Shown in pieces: positions 5,263 through 50,650 of a stretch of DNA of 64,000 bases. A program made the translations under genes and the position numbers. The notes under the pieces are model-generated. The model saw only the letters and a list, made by a program, of their open reading frames with translations, searched no databases and had not been told where the DNA came from. The DNA lies in the IMG/VR virus record IMGVR_UViG_3300027754_005796, positions 1-64,000 of that record; one strand, given 5' to 3'. Source of the DNA: a virus. Position 1 is the first letter of the stretch, and each line of letters starts with the position of its first letter.

Positions 5263-5979
5263 TCCTTCTTGCGGAAACAATTCCTGAAATTTCTTAAGAA
5301 CAAGATCGTTGATGCAAGGCTCATAGACCTTTACATCAAAATTGATTTTTTTATGATCTTCTTCTGTTAGCAATTTCTGAGCAAATGGCGAAATTGCTAA
5401 ATAATAAGGAGAAATTTTCTGTAGATTTATCCAGCGAAAAATATTTTTGTTAATGTGGCATTCTTGGATTTTTTCAAAAGTATAATCTCCACCAATTGTT
5501 TTTGCCAAAAACTCTTTGGTTTTTTCAATTCCTTCGAGCGCCTTCAAAATTGCCTGAGGAGATTTTTGTATCTCTTTATCAACCGGTCTTTTACAGATGA
5601 CATCGTATCTTCTCTTCCAAAGCTTCCATCGTTTCCAAGCTTTTTCACCAACCAAGCAGTTGGGATCAATAAGAGGAGTGGATTTTCCACTATTTATATG
5701 GCGCAAAACATCTAATTGTGCTTGAACATAAAGATGATATTCATCATTGGCAAGCACGCCTTGGGTTTCTCTAACCAATTTATAACAAATTTTAAATATT
5801 AAAGATTTTCTTGGATCGCCTTTGGCCATAGTGGCATGGCGATAATTTGGAAAAATCTTTCGGCTTTTGTCTAACCAAAGCAAATTGACTTTATAAGCCA
5901 TTGCTTCAAGCTCGTTCATTTCATATTCGATGATGGCATCGAGTCTCAAATCACCATCTCCATTTTTTCTTTTTGTCAT
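5233..5979 (-). CDS. Hypothetical protein
   Basis: 248-aa ORF with GAGG SD; no recognised motif. Confidence 0.7.
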   Translation of the reverse strand: MTKRKNGDGDLRLDAIIEYEMNELEAMAYKVNLLWLDKSRKIFPNYRHATMAKGDPRKSLIFKICYKLVRETQGVLANDEYHLYVQAQLDVLRHINSGKSTPLIDPNCLVGEKAWKRWKLWKRRYDVICKRPVDKEIQKSPQAILKALEGIEKTKEFLAKTIGGDYTFEKIQECHINKNIFRWINLQKISPYYLAISPFAQKLLTEEDHKKINFDVKVYEPCINDLVLKKFQELFPQEGLILQKNLDN

Positions 5980-6017
5980 ACTACCTCAATTTAGATTTTC
6001 CACAAGAGCGCCATCAA

Positions 6018-6905
6018 ATGAAAATAGTTTTTTGTCCTTTGGTCAGCAAAGATTTGCCAAGAGCAATTCGTGCCTGCAATTCAATTCGCAATCAGATGCC
6101 AACACAGTATCTTGAGCAACATTTAGTACCAATTATCAATTCAAAAGATAACGAATTTATTGATCAATTTGCAGAATGGTGTGAAACAGAGCGCATTCCT
6201 TACAGAATAACAAGGTCCAAAGGCACTCCAAGCAGAGGCAAAAACGAAGTTCTGAAGTTTTTTAGAGAATCTGAATATGATGGGATGAGTATGTTTGATG
6301 GAGACGACCTATTTTACCCATCTGCTGCACGACAAATTGAAAGACACTTGCTGCACCACCCCGGTACAGATGTCTTGATCACTAAGCCAAGCGATCAAAT
6401 AAACAACTGTCCAGAAAATGGTATTCCATTATCAGAAAATATTTTTGCATGTGTTTGGGACAGCAACTTTTATCCTATGCCTTACAATTACGGACCCGGA
6501 ACAGCAGATATTTTCATAGCTGGTCAATCAGCTTGCAGGAATTTAGGTGGACATGTCTTTTATAGCAAAAAAGTTGCAAATTTGGTTCAATATGACGAAG
6601 ATCAGTTGTTGGGAGAAGATGCGTTAATTGAATATGAAATGTTAAAATTACATCAAGAAGCAAAAATTTGTTTCTGGTTGACTTTTGCTACAGATATTCA
6701 ATTTCTTGATAGGTCTTATAATGGAAATATACAATCTGAAAGAAATGAAACAGATGGATATTTTTATTTTCAAAGGCTTTTAGGAAAGGTTCCTAACATG
6801 ATAGATGTCAATAGAAGCGCCTTTCGTGAGTTGCCTGTGGAGTTTCCTCCAATTATTTTTACTATACAACAAAAAATTGAATGGATTAGAACACAACTGA
6901 TTTAA
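6018..6905 (+). CDS. Glycosyltransferase-like protein (GT-A fold)
   Basis: ORF 5973..6905, probable start MKIVFCPL at 6018; 'GTPSRGKN' and DGDD (DxD) motif as in GT2. Confidence 0.6.
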   Translation: MKIVFCPLVSKDLPRAIRACNSIRNQMPTQYLEQHLVPIINSKDNEFIDQFAEWCETERIPYRITRSKGTPSRGKNEVLKFFRESEYDGMSMFDGDDLFYPSAARQIERHLLHHPGTDVLITKPSDQINNCPENGIPLSENIFACVWDSNFYPMPYNYGPGTADIFIAGQSACRNLGGHVFYSKKVANLVQYDEDQLLGEDALIEYEMLKLHQEAKICFWLTFATDIQFLDRSYNGNIQSERNETDGYFYFQRLLGKVPNMIDVNRSAFRELPVEFPPIIFTIQQKIEWIRTQLI

Positions 6906-6908
6906 GTC

Positions 6909-6936
6909 TTGACTTAGTGCAAAAATTATTTAAAAT
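6909..6936 (+). promoter_or_regulatory. Sigma70-like promoter preceding the structured noncoding region
   Basis: TTGACT (6909-6914), 16-nt spacer, TAAAAT (6931-6936). Confidence 0.6.
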
Positions 6937-6942
6937 CTAGTT

Positions 6943-7515
6943 ACTGTCGTTGGTAGGCTGGCTTGGTGTTTACAGGTCTTAAATGCCCTGTTCGTCGGCA
7001 AGTTACGCTGAAACTATTTAATAACTGAGATGAGCACTCGCTTGCTTCTTCGACTTTAAAAAGGTTTCGTACTACCTGATTAAAGTTGATGTAAAAACCT
7101 GTGGTGCCCCAAACTGGGTGAGTCTTTGTAGTTGTTGCGAAACAACGAATGCTGCTACGGGAAGCATTGTAAACCACAACAGAGAAGGTAAAGGCTGGGC
7201 GGCAAATTAGGCTGAATTTGCACAAGCAGACAGGGTGTGAACTGCCCAGATTTAGGACTCTGTAACCAAAGTACGCTGTATTGCGCAACTCATATGAGTT
7301 TGCATTGCAGGAGATTGATGTTTTGTAGAAGATTGATTAGGCTTAAACGCCAAAAAATTTGCTCTACTAAATTGATTTCTTCTAAAGGTATAAATTCTAT
7401 ATCTTTATAAATGCAAGAGCATCCTCGAGTCAGCCCCCCGGTGCAATATGGGATTGTAAAGCAGAATTTATAATTTTTTCTTGTTTCTTTTTGCCGTTGA
7501 CTTAATGGCAAAAAA
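6943..7515 (+). ncRNA. Candidate large structured ncRNA (core about 6960-7310), family unknown
   Basis: Long-range closing helix 6963-6984/7250-7269; helices 7050-7059/7080-7089, 7100-7105/7173-7178, 7131-7146 (GCGA tetraloop), 7195-7202/7242-7249, 7389-7398/7463-7472; pseudoknot 6985-6991/7230-7236; many G-U pairs point to the + strand. Confidence 0.65.
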
Positions 7516-7531
7516 ATTTCAGACTTAAATT

Positions 7532-8860
7532 ATGGATACATCAAAACTTGCTGAAACTTTGTCTCAAGTAGATCAACGCCATGTCTACATGCGTTGTAAC
7601 CCTGAAATCTTTGACTTTACAGACAAAGACTCCGTCTATGAGTTGCAGTTTTTTACTCATGGTGGTATGAATTTTACTATAAATTTAACAGACGATAATA
7701 TTCCTATAGTTTTGAGTATGCTTCGTATATCTCTCTTTCATAAAGATTGCAAGGTTTTGGTTTGGAATTGGAAATCTTTTGCTAGTTTTGTTTTATTCAA
7801 AACTAAAAAAGTCTACACAGTTGATGCTGCAATCATAGACTTGAAAATCATCGAATCTTTTTCAGGCTTCAAGCTCAAAGCTCCTAACGGCTTGGTAGAT
7901 GCCCTCAATAGGCTCAAAAATCTCATTACAGGCGGTTTCTGGAAGGATGTTGAGTCAACCTACAAAGTTGTTCATTTCCCCCTAATGACGACAGTTTTGC
8001 CCCATCTGGAGACAACTGGCGTTTTGAGCATCGAGAGTAGCAACAAGGTTTATGGTTATTACGAGATTGATGGTCAAGAGAATGGTCGTCTCAAGTGTCA
8101 TGGTGCTTTCAAACACAGCTTTGTGCCTCATGCTTTGAAGGCTGACACAAAAGCTGATCTGAAGCCAAGGTCGCAAGATGAGTTGTTTATGAACTTTGAT
8201 TTTCGAGGCATGGAGGTTTTTGTTCTAGCGCATTTAAGCGGCGATGAGCTTCTGAAAGAAATGTGTAAAGAAGTTGATATTTATTCATCTTTGTATAGGG
8301 AGTTGATGAAAAAGGAAATTTCTACAAAAGATGACAGGGAATTGGCAAAAAAATTATTTTTGCCGGTTATATATGGACAGTCTGCCTACTCGCTTTCTCA
8401 GCGATGTGGGTTTGCAATAGATATTGCAGAAGCTGTAGTCGAGCGAATTTGTTCTTCGTTCAAGGTCGCAGTTTCTTATGTCGCCGGATTTGAAAATCAT
8501 GTCAAACAACATGGTTACGCTAAAGACCTCTTTGGCAAAAGGCGCAGCAATTTTGAATCTGGCAAAGAGTATCTTGCACGCAATTTTGCCGTGCAATCAC
8601 CTGCTGCCACGATTTGTTCTGAAAAACTGATAAACCTTTATTTTGCTTTGAAAGACAAGGCTAATATCGCTTATACTGTTCATGATGGTTATGTGGTGTA
8701 TGCCACAAAAGACAATTGGAAACAGATTTATCAGATCGGCATGGATATTTTGACATCCGAATCTGATATGTGCGCCGGATTACGGCTTAAAGTGGCTTGC
8801 CGTGCCGGTCGAAATCTCAATGACCTTAAGCCCCTTGGTCGCAAAGGAGAAAAATGTTAG
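7532..8860 (+). CDS. Truncated family A DNA polymerase (palm and fingers, no thumb, degenerate exonuclease-like N-terminus)
   Basis: Motif A FDFRGMEVFVLAHLSGD, motif B RELAKKLFLPVIYG, RNFAVQSPAA, motif C VHDG; LETTGV and NGRL only about 20 aa apart. Confidence 0.85.
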   Translation: MDTSKLAETLSQVDQRHVYMRCNPEIFDFTDKDSVYELQFFTHGGMNFTINLTDDNIPIVLSMLRISLFHKDCKVLVWNWKSFASFVLFKTKKVYTVDAAIIDLKIIESFSGFKLKAPNGLVDALNRLKNLITGGFWKDVESTYKVVHFPLMTTVLPHLETTGVLSIESSNKVYGYYEIDGQENGRLKCHGAFKHSFVPHALKADTKADLKPRSQDELFMNFDFRGMEVFVLAHLSGDELLKEMCKEVDIYSSLYRELMKKEISTKDDRELAKKLFLPVIYGQSAYSLSQRCGFAIDIAEAVVERICSSFKVAVSYVAGFENHVKQHGYAKDLFGKRRSNFESGKEYLARNFAVQSPAATICSEKLINLYFALKDKANIAYTVHDGYVVYATKDNWKQIYQIGMDILTSESDMCAGLRLKVACRAGRNLNDLKPLGRKGEKC

Positions 8861-10030: not shown

Positions 10031-11557
10031 ATGCGTGAGTTAACTCCCGAAGAGCAAGCCAAACTTGAGGCCATGACTGATCCCGAAGTCGTCAAGCCTA
10101 AGTTTGGTTGGGATGATACATTTCAAAGAAAATTGTTAGGAATGCTGCTCACGGACCAATATATGCTGGTCCAAGCTATGGACAAAATAGAACCTGCTTA
10201 TTTCAGCAATGAAGTCCACATCTTGATTTGTAAAATATTGTTGAAATATTTCAATGAAAGAAAAGCTCTTCCAGAAAAGTGGATTTTGATTCAGGAGTTG
10301 AATGAGCAGATCAAAGAAAGAGATAAGACGGTCCAGCTTCACTATCTCGCTGAATTGAACGCAGTCTATGATTATTTTGTTCCGGGTGTTGAAACTCGTG
10401 AATATTTGATTGATAAAGTCACATATTTTGCAAAGGTTCAGGCGGTAAAGCTGGCTTTCCACACAAGTCTTGAAAAAATGCAGGAAGCTCCTGAAGATGA
10501 AAAGACATGGTCTTTTGTTTACGAAAAAATGCGACAGGCCATGATGATTGACCGAAGTTATGAACCCGGATTGGAATATTTCATAAATATTGATGAAATG
10601 TTCCGGCGAATGGATGATGTTTTTATTGGCAAAGATAGATTTACATCCGGTTTTCCATCCATAGACAACGCACTTACTGGTGGGGGGATGTTTGCAGGTC
10701 AGATTGCCAGTTGGATCGGTCTTCCCGGTACTGGCAAGTCGTTGGCTCTTGTGAAAGCTGCTGTGCAGAATGTCCTCTTGGGACATAAAGTGTTGTACAT
10801 AACTTTGGAAATGGATGAATTAGGCATCACACAGCGTTTTACATCTCAATTTGCCAAGCTTGACATCAACAATCTGCGTGGTGTTAAAGATACGGTCATA
10901 CGAACAATCGAGGAATTCAAAAAGGACAAAGAAGACCCTAACCTTTTGCATGTCAAACAGTTTCCCGGTGGTTCTATTGATGTGAATGGCATTCGTGCCT
11001 ACATGGCTCAATTGGAATTGCGTGGCTGGAAACCAAACCTTTTTGTTTTGGATTATGTTGGCGAAATGAAAGATGATCCAAATTTGAAGAAATACGAATC
11101 GGCATACAAAATTCTGCGTGATCTCAGAGGTTTTGCCGTAGAAAAGCAACATTGCATTTTTACTTGTGTCCAGCCGAATGCTAGTGCTGCAAAGCTTGAA
11201 ATTGGCCAGTATATTGATGAAAGCAACATTGGCACATCTTTCGATCAGTTCAAGCCGTTGGATGCATTTTGGAGCATTAATCAGCAAGTATTGGAAAAGG
11301 ACGCAGAAGTAGGAAGGGTTTTTGTTATTAAGCACCGTAATGGTCGTTCACGGTTTCCTTTCAAAATCTCTTTTGATTACAAGCTGGGCACATTGGATAT
11401 GTTTGAAATAAGCAAGGATAGATATCGTGAAGCCATGAATCTGGTTCAGGAGAAAAAGGCATCTGAGATTTCTCTTGATAATGTTGAAGCCCCTGCGAAA
11501 AAGGGCAGAAGCAAAAAGCCATTTAAGGGCGATGATATTGAAACCTACGAAGCTTAG
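10031..11557 (+). CDS. Replicative DnaB/T4 gp41-like helicase
   Basis: Walker A GLPGTGKS, YITLEM, LFVLDY, IKHRNG. Confidence 0.9.
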   Translation: MRELTPEEQAKLEAMTDPEVVKPKFGWDDTFQRKLLGMLLTDQYMLVQAMDKIEPAYFSNEVHILICKILLKYFNERKALPEKWILIQELNEQIKERDKTVQLHYLAELNAVYDYFVPGVETREYLIDKVTYFAKVQAVKLAFHTSLEKMQEAPEDEKTWSFVYEKMRQAMMIDRSYEPGLEYFINIDEMFRRMDDVFIGKDRFTSGFPSIDNALTGGGMFAGQIASWIGLPGTGKSLALVKAAVQNVLLGHKVLYITLEMDELGITQRFTSQFAKLDINNLRGVKDTVIRTIEEFKKDKEDPNLLHVKQFPGGSIDVNGIRAYMAQLELRGWKPNLFVLDYVGEMKDDPNLKKYESAYKILRDLRGFAVEKQHCIFTCVQPNASAAKLEIGQYIDESNIGTSFDQFKPLDAFWSINQQVLEKDAEVGRVFVIKHRNGRSRFPFKISFDYKLGTLDMFEISKDRYREAMNLVQEKKASEISLDNVEAPAKKGRSKKPFKGDDIETYEA

Positions 11558-50265: not shown

Positions 50266-50615
50266 GGGGTTGTACTGGTATCGATTCAGACTCATAATCC
50301 CTAAGTGGCACGCAGAGGTTGGCCGAACGGACTCTTAAAAATTCGGCTGTCGATATAAACGACGAAACTGTTCACGCTTTGGCTGCTTAATTTAAGCAAC
50401 CACGAACCTAGGGGGCGATGTGGGTAGCGCCCGAAGGTTCGACGCTAAATCCTGCTGGTTTTGTGGCTCCAACGACCACTTAACGAGACAAAGTTGGTAA
50501 GGCCGAAGCAAGTTTTGTTCTTGGTACTTGCAAGGTTTGATTAAACAAAGAAACAAGCGTGTAGAGGCTTAGAGAGAGTGGTTTGAAGACAGGGGTTCAA
50601 CTCCCCTCAACTCCA
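50266..50615 (+). ncRNA. ssrA: tmRNA
   Basis: 5' GGGGTTGtactggtatcga; 3' T arm GACAGGGGTTCAACTCCCCT and CAACTCC-A; G3-U acceptor pair; tag frame GAC GAA ACT GTT CAC GCT TTG GCT GCT TAA (50361-50390) = (A)DETVHALAA. Confidence 0.95.
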
Positions 50616-50617
50616 CT

Positions 50618-50650
50618 AAAAAATCCGTTGTTAATACAGCGGATTTTTTT
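50618..50650 (+). terminator. tmRNA terminator
   Basis: AAAAAATCCGTTG...CAGCGGATTTTTTT. Confidence 0.75.

Follow-up and report, generated by a model that had tools for sequence, protein, structure and literature searches.

The gene-free gap of 626 nt (6906-7531) that separates a 310-aa open reading frame (ORF 5973-6905) from the gene for a compact family-A DNA polymerase-like protein (ORF 7532-8860) in a phage genome is predicted to encode a genuine plus-strand non-coding RNA of about 540 nt. This RNA extends from ~6943 to ~7480, with a conserved core at 7024-7460, and probably represents a previously undescribed, multiply pseudoknotted family. Counterparts of the element are found at the equivalent site of at least 25 distinct phage contigs, with polymerase identities as low as ~31%. 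As laid out below, the setting of the locus makes a role of the RNA at the start of replication a possibility worth considering. The window, i.e., the whole stretch of 64,000 nucleotides that was analysed, comprises the first 64 kb of a 172.8-kb IMG/VR contig rated by CheckV as ~40% complete. Given its length and this rating, the source contig is that of a huge, uncultured phage. The features of the locus are listed in Table 1.

Extent, strand and non-coding character of the element

The element is preceded by a promoter of the sigma70 type, which sets its predicted 5' end. Of 20 family members, 8 have a promoter with at least 10 of 12 matches at the 5' edge of the element, compared with 1.5 expected, and two of the loci (L036 and L043) carry a perfect TTGACA/TATAAT promoter. 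The first 76 nt of the predicted transcript form a leader that is specific to the lineage of the window; in L036, L043 and L044, the RNA begins ~25 nt ahead of helix P2. At the opposite edge, a weak terminator-like hairpin with a U-run represents a possible 3' end of the RNA. Stronger equivalents follow the core in L071 and L042, while not all members contain such a structure. The preliminary description of this DNA had taken frequent G-U pairs as a sign of RNA-level selection on the plus strand, and this view is borne out by the alignment of relatives, in which paired positions contain 81 G-U cells compared with 49 A-C cells. Together with the promoters, which are located on the plus strand, this excess fixes the strand of the RNA. 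The adjacent polymerase gene invariably has the same orientation.

It is conceivable that the gap does not specify an RNA but rather encodes a protein in the minus-strand ORF 6941-7288, or functions as double-stranded DNA, for instance as iterons. In the window and in L044, the minus strand indeed contains open frames of 109-121 aa. However, among the 23 members of the family, the longest stretch free of stops (45-121 aa) falls on different strands, in different frames and at different places, and single-base indels break up the conserved blocks. The element is therefore non-coding, since these indels are combined with the absence of any ORF shared in strand or frame. When ORF 6941-7288 was compared with its relatives, only short patches of similarity were found, which mirror the conservation at the nucleotide level; the ORF is thus not conserved at the level of its codons, and the interpretation as an RNA survives this check. 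In addition, neither protein nor double-stranded DNA constraints explain the long-range compensatory changes described below, and a repeat analysis of the window did not reveal any iteron-like repeat family. Coding is refuted by these data, and an element that does not act as RNA appears exceedingly improbable.

The preliminary description had also been unable to assign the RNA to a known family, and our searches agree with this assessment. In a cmscan analysis against Rfam 15, which includes GOLLD, ROOL, OLE, HEARO, RNase P, group I and II introns, SRP and tmRNA, there was nothing at gathering thresholds in the gap region or in 19 homologous loci, and nothing relevant at E<=10 in the interval 6700-7800. 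Literature searches did not retrieve any description of the RNA either. With neither a catalogued family nor a published description matching it, the family appears to be new. The sole Rfam match in the 64-kb window is a tmRNA at 50266-50618 (129.7 bits; tag peptide DETVHALAA), and no tRNA genes were found in this stretch.

Table 1. Features of the RNA locus and its neighbours (positions in the window; percentages and pair counts refer to alignments of relatives)
Feature	Position	Strand	Details
ORF, 310 aa	5973-6905	+	Upstream of the RNA; contains a DGDD motif
Sigma70-type promoter of the RNA	6909-6936	+	TTGACT, 16 nt, TAAAAT; predicted start near 6943
Lineage-specific 5' leader	6943-7018	+	Unalignable to other family members
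Conserved ACUGAGA	7024-7030	+	Alignment
Hairpin P1	7032-7036/7043-7047	+	Loop CUCnCU; 5/5 pairs changed on both sides, 85% of cells paired
P2	7050-7089	+	Tip GGU/ACC 7063-7065/7074-7076; loop 7066-7073; in every lineage, with register shifts
PK1	7068-7073/7270-7275	+	CGUACU (P2 loop)/AGUACG; covariation
Outer helix of multibranch	7097-7100/7186-7189	+	ACCU/AGGU; covariation
P3	7100-7105/7173-7178	+	92% paired
Three hairpins inside P3	7106-7119, 7131-7146, 7148-7168	+	Loop of the last hairpin GCUACGGGA
Conserved GUCUUUGUAG	7122-7131	+	In central multibranch (7097-7189)
P4	7179-7184/7258-7263	+	ACAGAG/CUCUGU; covariation
P5	7195-7202/7242-7249	+	8/8 pairs changed on both sides, 87% paired
P5b	7217-7223/7235-7241	+	Enclosed by P5; conserved loop GCAGACAgG 7227-7235
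Conserved UUUAGGA	7251-7257	+	Alignment
P6	7305-7309/7412-7416	+	Tentative; recurs with altered sequence, mis-registered in MAFFT alignment
Hairpin GGC-UUAAAC-GCC	7340-7351	+	Solid; 96% paired, 2/3 pairs covary
CUCUACUAA	7362-7370	+	3' domain motif
Hairpin	7384-7392/7398-7406	+	Recurs with changed sequence in relatives (by eye)
GUCAGCCCCCCGGU	7429-7442	+	3' domain motif
GAUUGUAAA	7452-7460	+	3' domain motif
Weak terminator-like hairpin and U-run	7453-7481	+	AUUGUAAA/UUUAUAAU; read directly from the sequence
Second promoter-like site	7497-7525	+	TTGACT..., poor -10; ends 6 nt before the polymerase ATG
Compact family-A DNA polymerase-like gene, 442 aa	7532-8860	+	Pfam PF00476 (DNA_pol_A), E=1.9e-30
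Basic all-helical protein, 186 aa	8854-9414	+	Co-operonic with the polymerase; pI 9.4
DnaB-like helicase	10031-11557		Downstream of the 186-aa ORF; Pfam

Comparative evidence for the fold

The evidence for structure is comparative rather than thermodynamic, because the folding energy of the single sequence is no better than that of dinucleotide shuffles (z = -1.33 for the plus strand and -1.22 for the minus strand; not significant). This folding check thus lends no support to the preliminary description. However, it is outweighed by the covariation among relatives, and we consider the z-score uninformative rather than negative. To score the 5' domain (7019-7282), a hand-drawn structure was imposed on an alignment of 16 sequences. 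In this alignment, 78.7% of the cells were paired, compared with 65.2±0.9% in shuffles, none of which (0/500) reached a value as high, and sliding the partners by 1-3 columns reduced pairing to 38-45%. Both sides had changed in 43 of the 60 pairs tested, and the covariation score amounted to 0.429, compared with 0.217 for shuffled data. Among the individual elements, P3c stands out with 98% of its cells paired, and the outer helix of the multibranch alternates between CCU/AGG and CUU/AAG (8 sequences each), with an independent switch in L090.

Two long-range pairings, both of them pseudoknots, connect these elements. PK1, which links the loop of P2 to a segment at the end of the 5' domain, exists in ~10 sequence versions among lineages, including GUGCU/AGCAC, CGCACUU/AAGUGCG, UAUGCU/AGCAUA, GAUACC/GGUAUC, GUACCC/GGGUAC and AAGUGCU/AGCACUU. 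Its two strands form a mean Watson-Crick run of 5.7 with their own partner, compared with 4.1 when paired with the partner of a foreign lineage (permutation p=1e-5). P4 exists in more than 12 versions among lineages and shows runs of 5.21 with its own and 3.04 with a foreign partner, a difference not reached in any of 100,000 permutations. It constitutes a pseudoknot, because its 5' strand lies inside the outer helix of the multibranch and its partner outside of it. A third pairing, PK2 (7125-7129/7230-7234), would connect a loop to a junction and is plausible by eye; it remains tentative, with 54.7% of cells paired and zero double changes in the alignment.

The fold of the 3' domain (7276-7460) is less well resolved than that of the 5' domain. 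Its hand-drawn helices are 61% paired, compared with 50% in shuffled data, and RNAalifold recovered little from the MAFFT alignment of this region. The short hairpin at 7340-7351 is solid. The other helices are mis-registered by MAFFT, including the hairpin at 7384-7392/7398-7406, which receives only moderate support on the same alignment, with pairing in 58.8% of cells and two-sided changes in 6 of 9 pairs.

All pairings listed in the preliminary description can be found by direct reading of the window, and its general proposal of a structured, novel RNA is supported, although several of the pairings turned out not to be conserved. Its 10-bp helix (P2) and the helix now termed P5 both covary in relatives. 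The same applies to the core of its multibranch domain (7100-7178), namely P3 with the three enclosed hairpins, but not to the GCGA tetraloop placed there, which is unconserved. The helix proposed to close the structure (6963-6984/7250-7269) is present in the sequence and in its minimum free energy fold, yet it is unconserved and clashes with the covarying P4. Similarly, the pseudoknot drawn between 6985-6991 and 7230-7236 exists in the window, but is not conserved, with its 5' arm falling into the leader. The lack of conservation of both pairings is explained by the fact that the leader (6943-7018) is missing or different in other lineages. A helix interrupted into 9+6+4 bp would arise by chance between a 75-nt leader and the RNA with a probability of ~2% (rough estimate), and the closing helix may represent a lineage-specific, switch-like alternative conformation that excludes P4. 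Finally, the perfect 10-bp pair described for the 3' domain (7389-7398/7463-7472) can be drawn in the window, but is unconserved and overlaps the recurring hairpin at 7384-7392/7398-7406.

Distribution and genomic setting

A search of viral contigs retrieved 15 loci with the polymerase protein as a query and 52 with an alignment of polymerases. Every one of these polymerase homologues begins with residue 1, and a gap of 400-1250 nt precedes almost all of them. Iterated nhmmer searches with the gap of the window identified 23 loci (~20 distinct; E-values from 1e-27 to 1e-105), and in all 23 the RNA lies upstream of the polymerase gene. The window shares with its relatives the core motifs and helices, i.e., P1, the P2 loop with PK1, the multibranch with P3, P4 and P5, upstream of a PolA-like gene of ~440 codons. 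In more distant loci (L053, L054, L072-L075, L078, L079 and L081), the 3' motif ...CGGU-nUGCGCA is recognisable in a long gap. When the RNA motif alone was searched for in viral contigs, metagenomes and 185,579 prokaryote genomes, the true matches all came from phage contigs, and wherever such a contig extended far enough downstream, the polymerase gene lay 420-540 nt past the motif. A covariance model of the central multibranch, R1, which scores 88.5 bits on the window, detected exactly one copy in each of three genomes (G000, G001 and G003), just upstream of the polymerase gene. Additional motif matches in rumen contigs and a 'Prevotella MAG' (L094, L096-L098, L104) were dismissed as chance, as they fall within a coding ORF and R1 does not recognise them. 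In a DNA search of GenBank phages, the RNA was unmatched.

Throughout the family, 70-230 nt separate the RNA from the polymerase gene that follows it in the same orientation, and the gene on the other side of the RNA varies in identity and strand among lineages. In the window, this position is taken by ORF 5973-6905. Only in L002 and L009, the closest lineages, does this ORF likewise precede the RNA; it matches neither Pfam nor PHROG families, and a pattern search of viral contigs returned no relatives. This variability bears on the idea that the element may be a self-splicing intron or self-cleaving ribozyme in the polymerase transcript. Group I introns are often found in the family-A polymerase genes of phages, the fold is pseudoknotted, and in the window, ORF 5973-6905 and the polymerase gene share their orientation. 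However, the upstream gene differs or has the opposite orientation in other lineages, and each polymerase homologue has a start codon of its own at residue 1, with the frame upstream of the ATG closed by a TAA codon (7526-7528) in the window. Moreover, there is no Rfam match to group I introns (RF00028), group II introns or small ribozymes at E<=10, leaving this explanation very improbable and essentially excluded.

The association is not reciprocal. In L076 and L077, an ORF directly abuts the polymerase gene upstream and leaves no gap for the RNA. Likewise, the 595-kb uncultured GenBank phage LR756511.1 (L172, 392426-396706) encodes a polymerase 33% identical to that of the window and lacks the space for the RNA. 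Hence, an adjacent RNA is not a strict requirement for the polymerase. In LR756511.1, it is a 387-aa ORF that abuts the start of the polymerase gene, and a 188-aa ORF follows downstream. A different arrangement is seen in L073 and L074, which contain an extra lysine-rich ORF of 89-93 aa between an RNA-like region and the polymerase gene (~1197-1469 of their upstream stretches).

The polymerase gene itself and its downstream neighbours form a block of apparent replication functions. The predicted structure of the polymerase (pLDDT 92.9) resembles the large fragments known as Klenow, Bst and Pol nu, with TM-scores of 0.70-0.75 when normalised to its own length and 0.5-0.6 when normalised to theirs. 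Residues 169-424 align to positions 304-574 of the Bst large-fragment chain, which comprise the palm and fingers, and in the model the protein appears to lack the thumb subdomain, with ~130 residues absent. There is no Shine-Dalgarno sequence ahead of its ATG, and the 23-mer at 7497-7519, a near-copy of the RNA promoter uncovered by repeat analysis of the window, is placed such that transcription could start at or near the ATG, making a leaderless polymerase mRNA possible. The co-operonic 186-aa protein is more conserved than the polymerase, with 53-78% identity in 22 loci. It matches neither a Pfam family nor a fold in the PDB, and the notion that it could be a sigma factor is consequently unsupported.

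To place the locus within the genome, we determined the distance from the promoter side of the RNA to the global minimum of the cumulative GC skew in six genomes (G000-G005). This minimum lies 432 nt away in G000, 936 nt in G002 and 730 nt in G005, and the slope or sign of the skew switches at the locus in G001, G003 and G004. Transcription of the RNA and the polymerase gene points away from the skew minimum in each of the six. In phage and bacterial genomes, the main strand switch of the skew usually marks the origin. The locus is thus origin-proximal by virtue of its position at the skew switch in six genomes, and a replication origin is likely located here, as judged from GC skew, which also follows gene orientation. 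Gene orientation indeed changes at the same place as the skew. In G000, the 172.8-kb contig, the global minimum falls at positions ~6000-6500 of the window, and the skew is then almost entirely positive for ~135 kb. The contig of L053 (G002; 343 kb, 55.8% GC, labelled 'provirus' in IMG/VR) displays a clean V-shaped skew whose minimum adjoins the polymerase locus, with an RNA too diverged for R1.

Candidate functions and known systems

The function that we favour, albeit tentatively, is that of a replication-initiation RNA, which would serve as an origin transcript or pre-primer extended by the PolA-like enzyme and/or as a scaffold for this polymerase. A host-type promoter would drive transcription of the RNA at the head of a replication block encoding the PolA-like enzyme, the 186-aa protein and the DnaB-like helicase. 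Through its fold, the RNA might remain attached to the DNA immediately downstream, or rebind to it, and/or bring in the neighbouring polymerase. The PolA-like enzyme would next elongate the RNA from its 3' end or from an end created by processing, and the origin would thereby be opened so that the helicase could load, much as ColE1 RNA II acts with Pol I. The contact of the RNA with DNA or with the polymerase is a step that we infer. Several observations weaken this model. Among relatives, no segment of the RNA consistently matches and evolves in step with the downstream DNA, no antisense promoter was detected at 6700-7700 of the window, some members of the polymerase clade have no RNA, and the elaborate conserved tertiary fold exceeds the needs of known primer RNAs. 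In a more specific and rather improbable version, the RNA would be an obligate partner of the thumb-less PolA-like enzyme in a ribonucleoprotein that initiates replication, docking the polymerase, possibly along with the 186-aa protein, at the origin, providing a primer 3' end and replacing the grip of the thumb on the duplex.

The constant position of the RNA ahead of the polymerase gene would also fit a cis-acting, structured 5' leader of the polymerase operon mRNA that controls translation, stability or read-through by binding a small ligand or a protein, for instance in autoregulation by the polymerase or the 186-aa protein. The T4 proteins gp32 and gp43 autoregulate their synthesis via structured leaders. 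Consistent with such a role, the RNA and the polymerase gene always share the same strand at close distance, no consistent terminator was found between them in the window and the loci of its relatives, and a second promoter in front of the polymerase gene lacks statistical support, with candidate sites in 8 of 19 members compared with 4.7 expected (not significant). However, an RNA of 435-550 nt with several pseudoknots is far above the size and complexity of known operators or riboswitches. Furthermore, hairpins resembling terminators, each with a U-run, come after the RNA in L071, L042 and the window, promoter-like sites precede the polymerase gene in several lineages, including the 23-nt promoter duplicate in the window, and the extra ORF of L073 and L074 separates the RNA from the polymerase gene. 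We regard a leader function as somewhat unlikely.

As another alternative, the element may be a stand-alone large phage RNA that is unrelated to the polymerase, serving for example in RNA-only assembly or host takeover, roles that have been proposed for GOLLD and ROOL, and adjacent to this gene only through a conserved gene order within the replication module. In favour of this idea, the RNA is equipped with a promoter of its own, it shows the conserved loops and pseudoknots that characterise ornate RNAs, and some members of the polymerase clade do without it; in addition, the phage-borne RNAs GOLLD and ROOL form RNA-only multimers (PMC12286853). On the other hand, the site upstream of the polymerase gene is kept while the other flanking gene changes identity and strand, the RNA is single-copy and never found elsewhere, it has no tRNA neighbours, unlike many GOLLD and ROOL loci, and it shows no similarity to Rfam families. 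We consider this explanation unlikely.

To our knowledge, large, intricately folded RNAs are seldom found in bacteria and phages, and for nearly all of them, no function has been identified. GOLLD (RF01998) and ROOL (RF03087) are large ornate RNAs of phages and prophages whose function is unknown (PMC12286853). They resemble the RNA described here in their size of hundreds of nucleotides, their conserved loops and pseudoknots, their carriage by phages and the possession of a promoter of their own (PMC12286853). In contrast to GOLLD and ROOL, the present RNA, which shows no sequence or structure similarity to them by cmscan and does not lie beside tRNAs, is strictly single-copy and located directly upstream of one polymerase gene, at a GC-skew switch. 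The T4 gene 32 pseudoknot and the gene 43 operator are likewise RNA structures that directly precede a replication gene in the same orientation. However, these leaders measure only tens of nucleotides, unlike the conserved core of 435 nt with at least two pseudoknots and a dedicated promoter found here. The succession of promoter, structured RNA and enzyme gene on one strand is also reminiscent of retrons (msr-msd and reverse transcriptase), DRT2 systems (ncRNA and reverse transcriptase) and the omega-RNA of IscB. The enzyme in our case is a family-A DNA polymerase rather than a reverse transcriptase or nuclease, and a template or guide segment was not identified.

The closest parallel to the favoured role in replication initiation is RNA II of ColE1, a transcript of ~550 nt synthesised by the host RNA polymerase, which opens the origin and primes DNA synthesis by Pol I (PMC5043065). 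Like RNA II of ColE1/pMB1, the phage RNA measures ~540 nt and has a host-type promoter; it is situated at the minimum of the skew, and its neighbour is a PolA-like gene. It would likewise be transcribed in the direction of leading-strand synthesis, with a candidate origin placed here by GC skew. The two RNAs differ in that they share no homology and that the tertiary fold of the phage RNA is much more elaborate. Moreover, a simple consensus scan of 6700-7700, conducted for the window only, detected no promoter-like site on the minus strand that could drive a counterpart of the antisense RNA I. As regards a persistent R-loop, processing by RNase H and extension by a family-A polymerase, which mark ColE1-type priming, the phage locus offers the adjacent PolA-like gene, and no covariation was found between the RNA and downstream DNA. 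Even so, the lead to a function is unusually sharp for an RNA of this kind, given its single copy, its fixed site upstream of a minimal family-A polymerase gene and its position at the GC-skew switch, and a role at the start of replication could be tested with the RNA, two small proteins and a short piece of DNA. If this role proved true, the RNA would be the first elaborately folded RNA to be linked to the firing of a phage origin, and it would establish a new kind of partnership between an RNA and a polymerase that would make a good target for cryo-EM.
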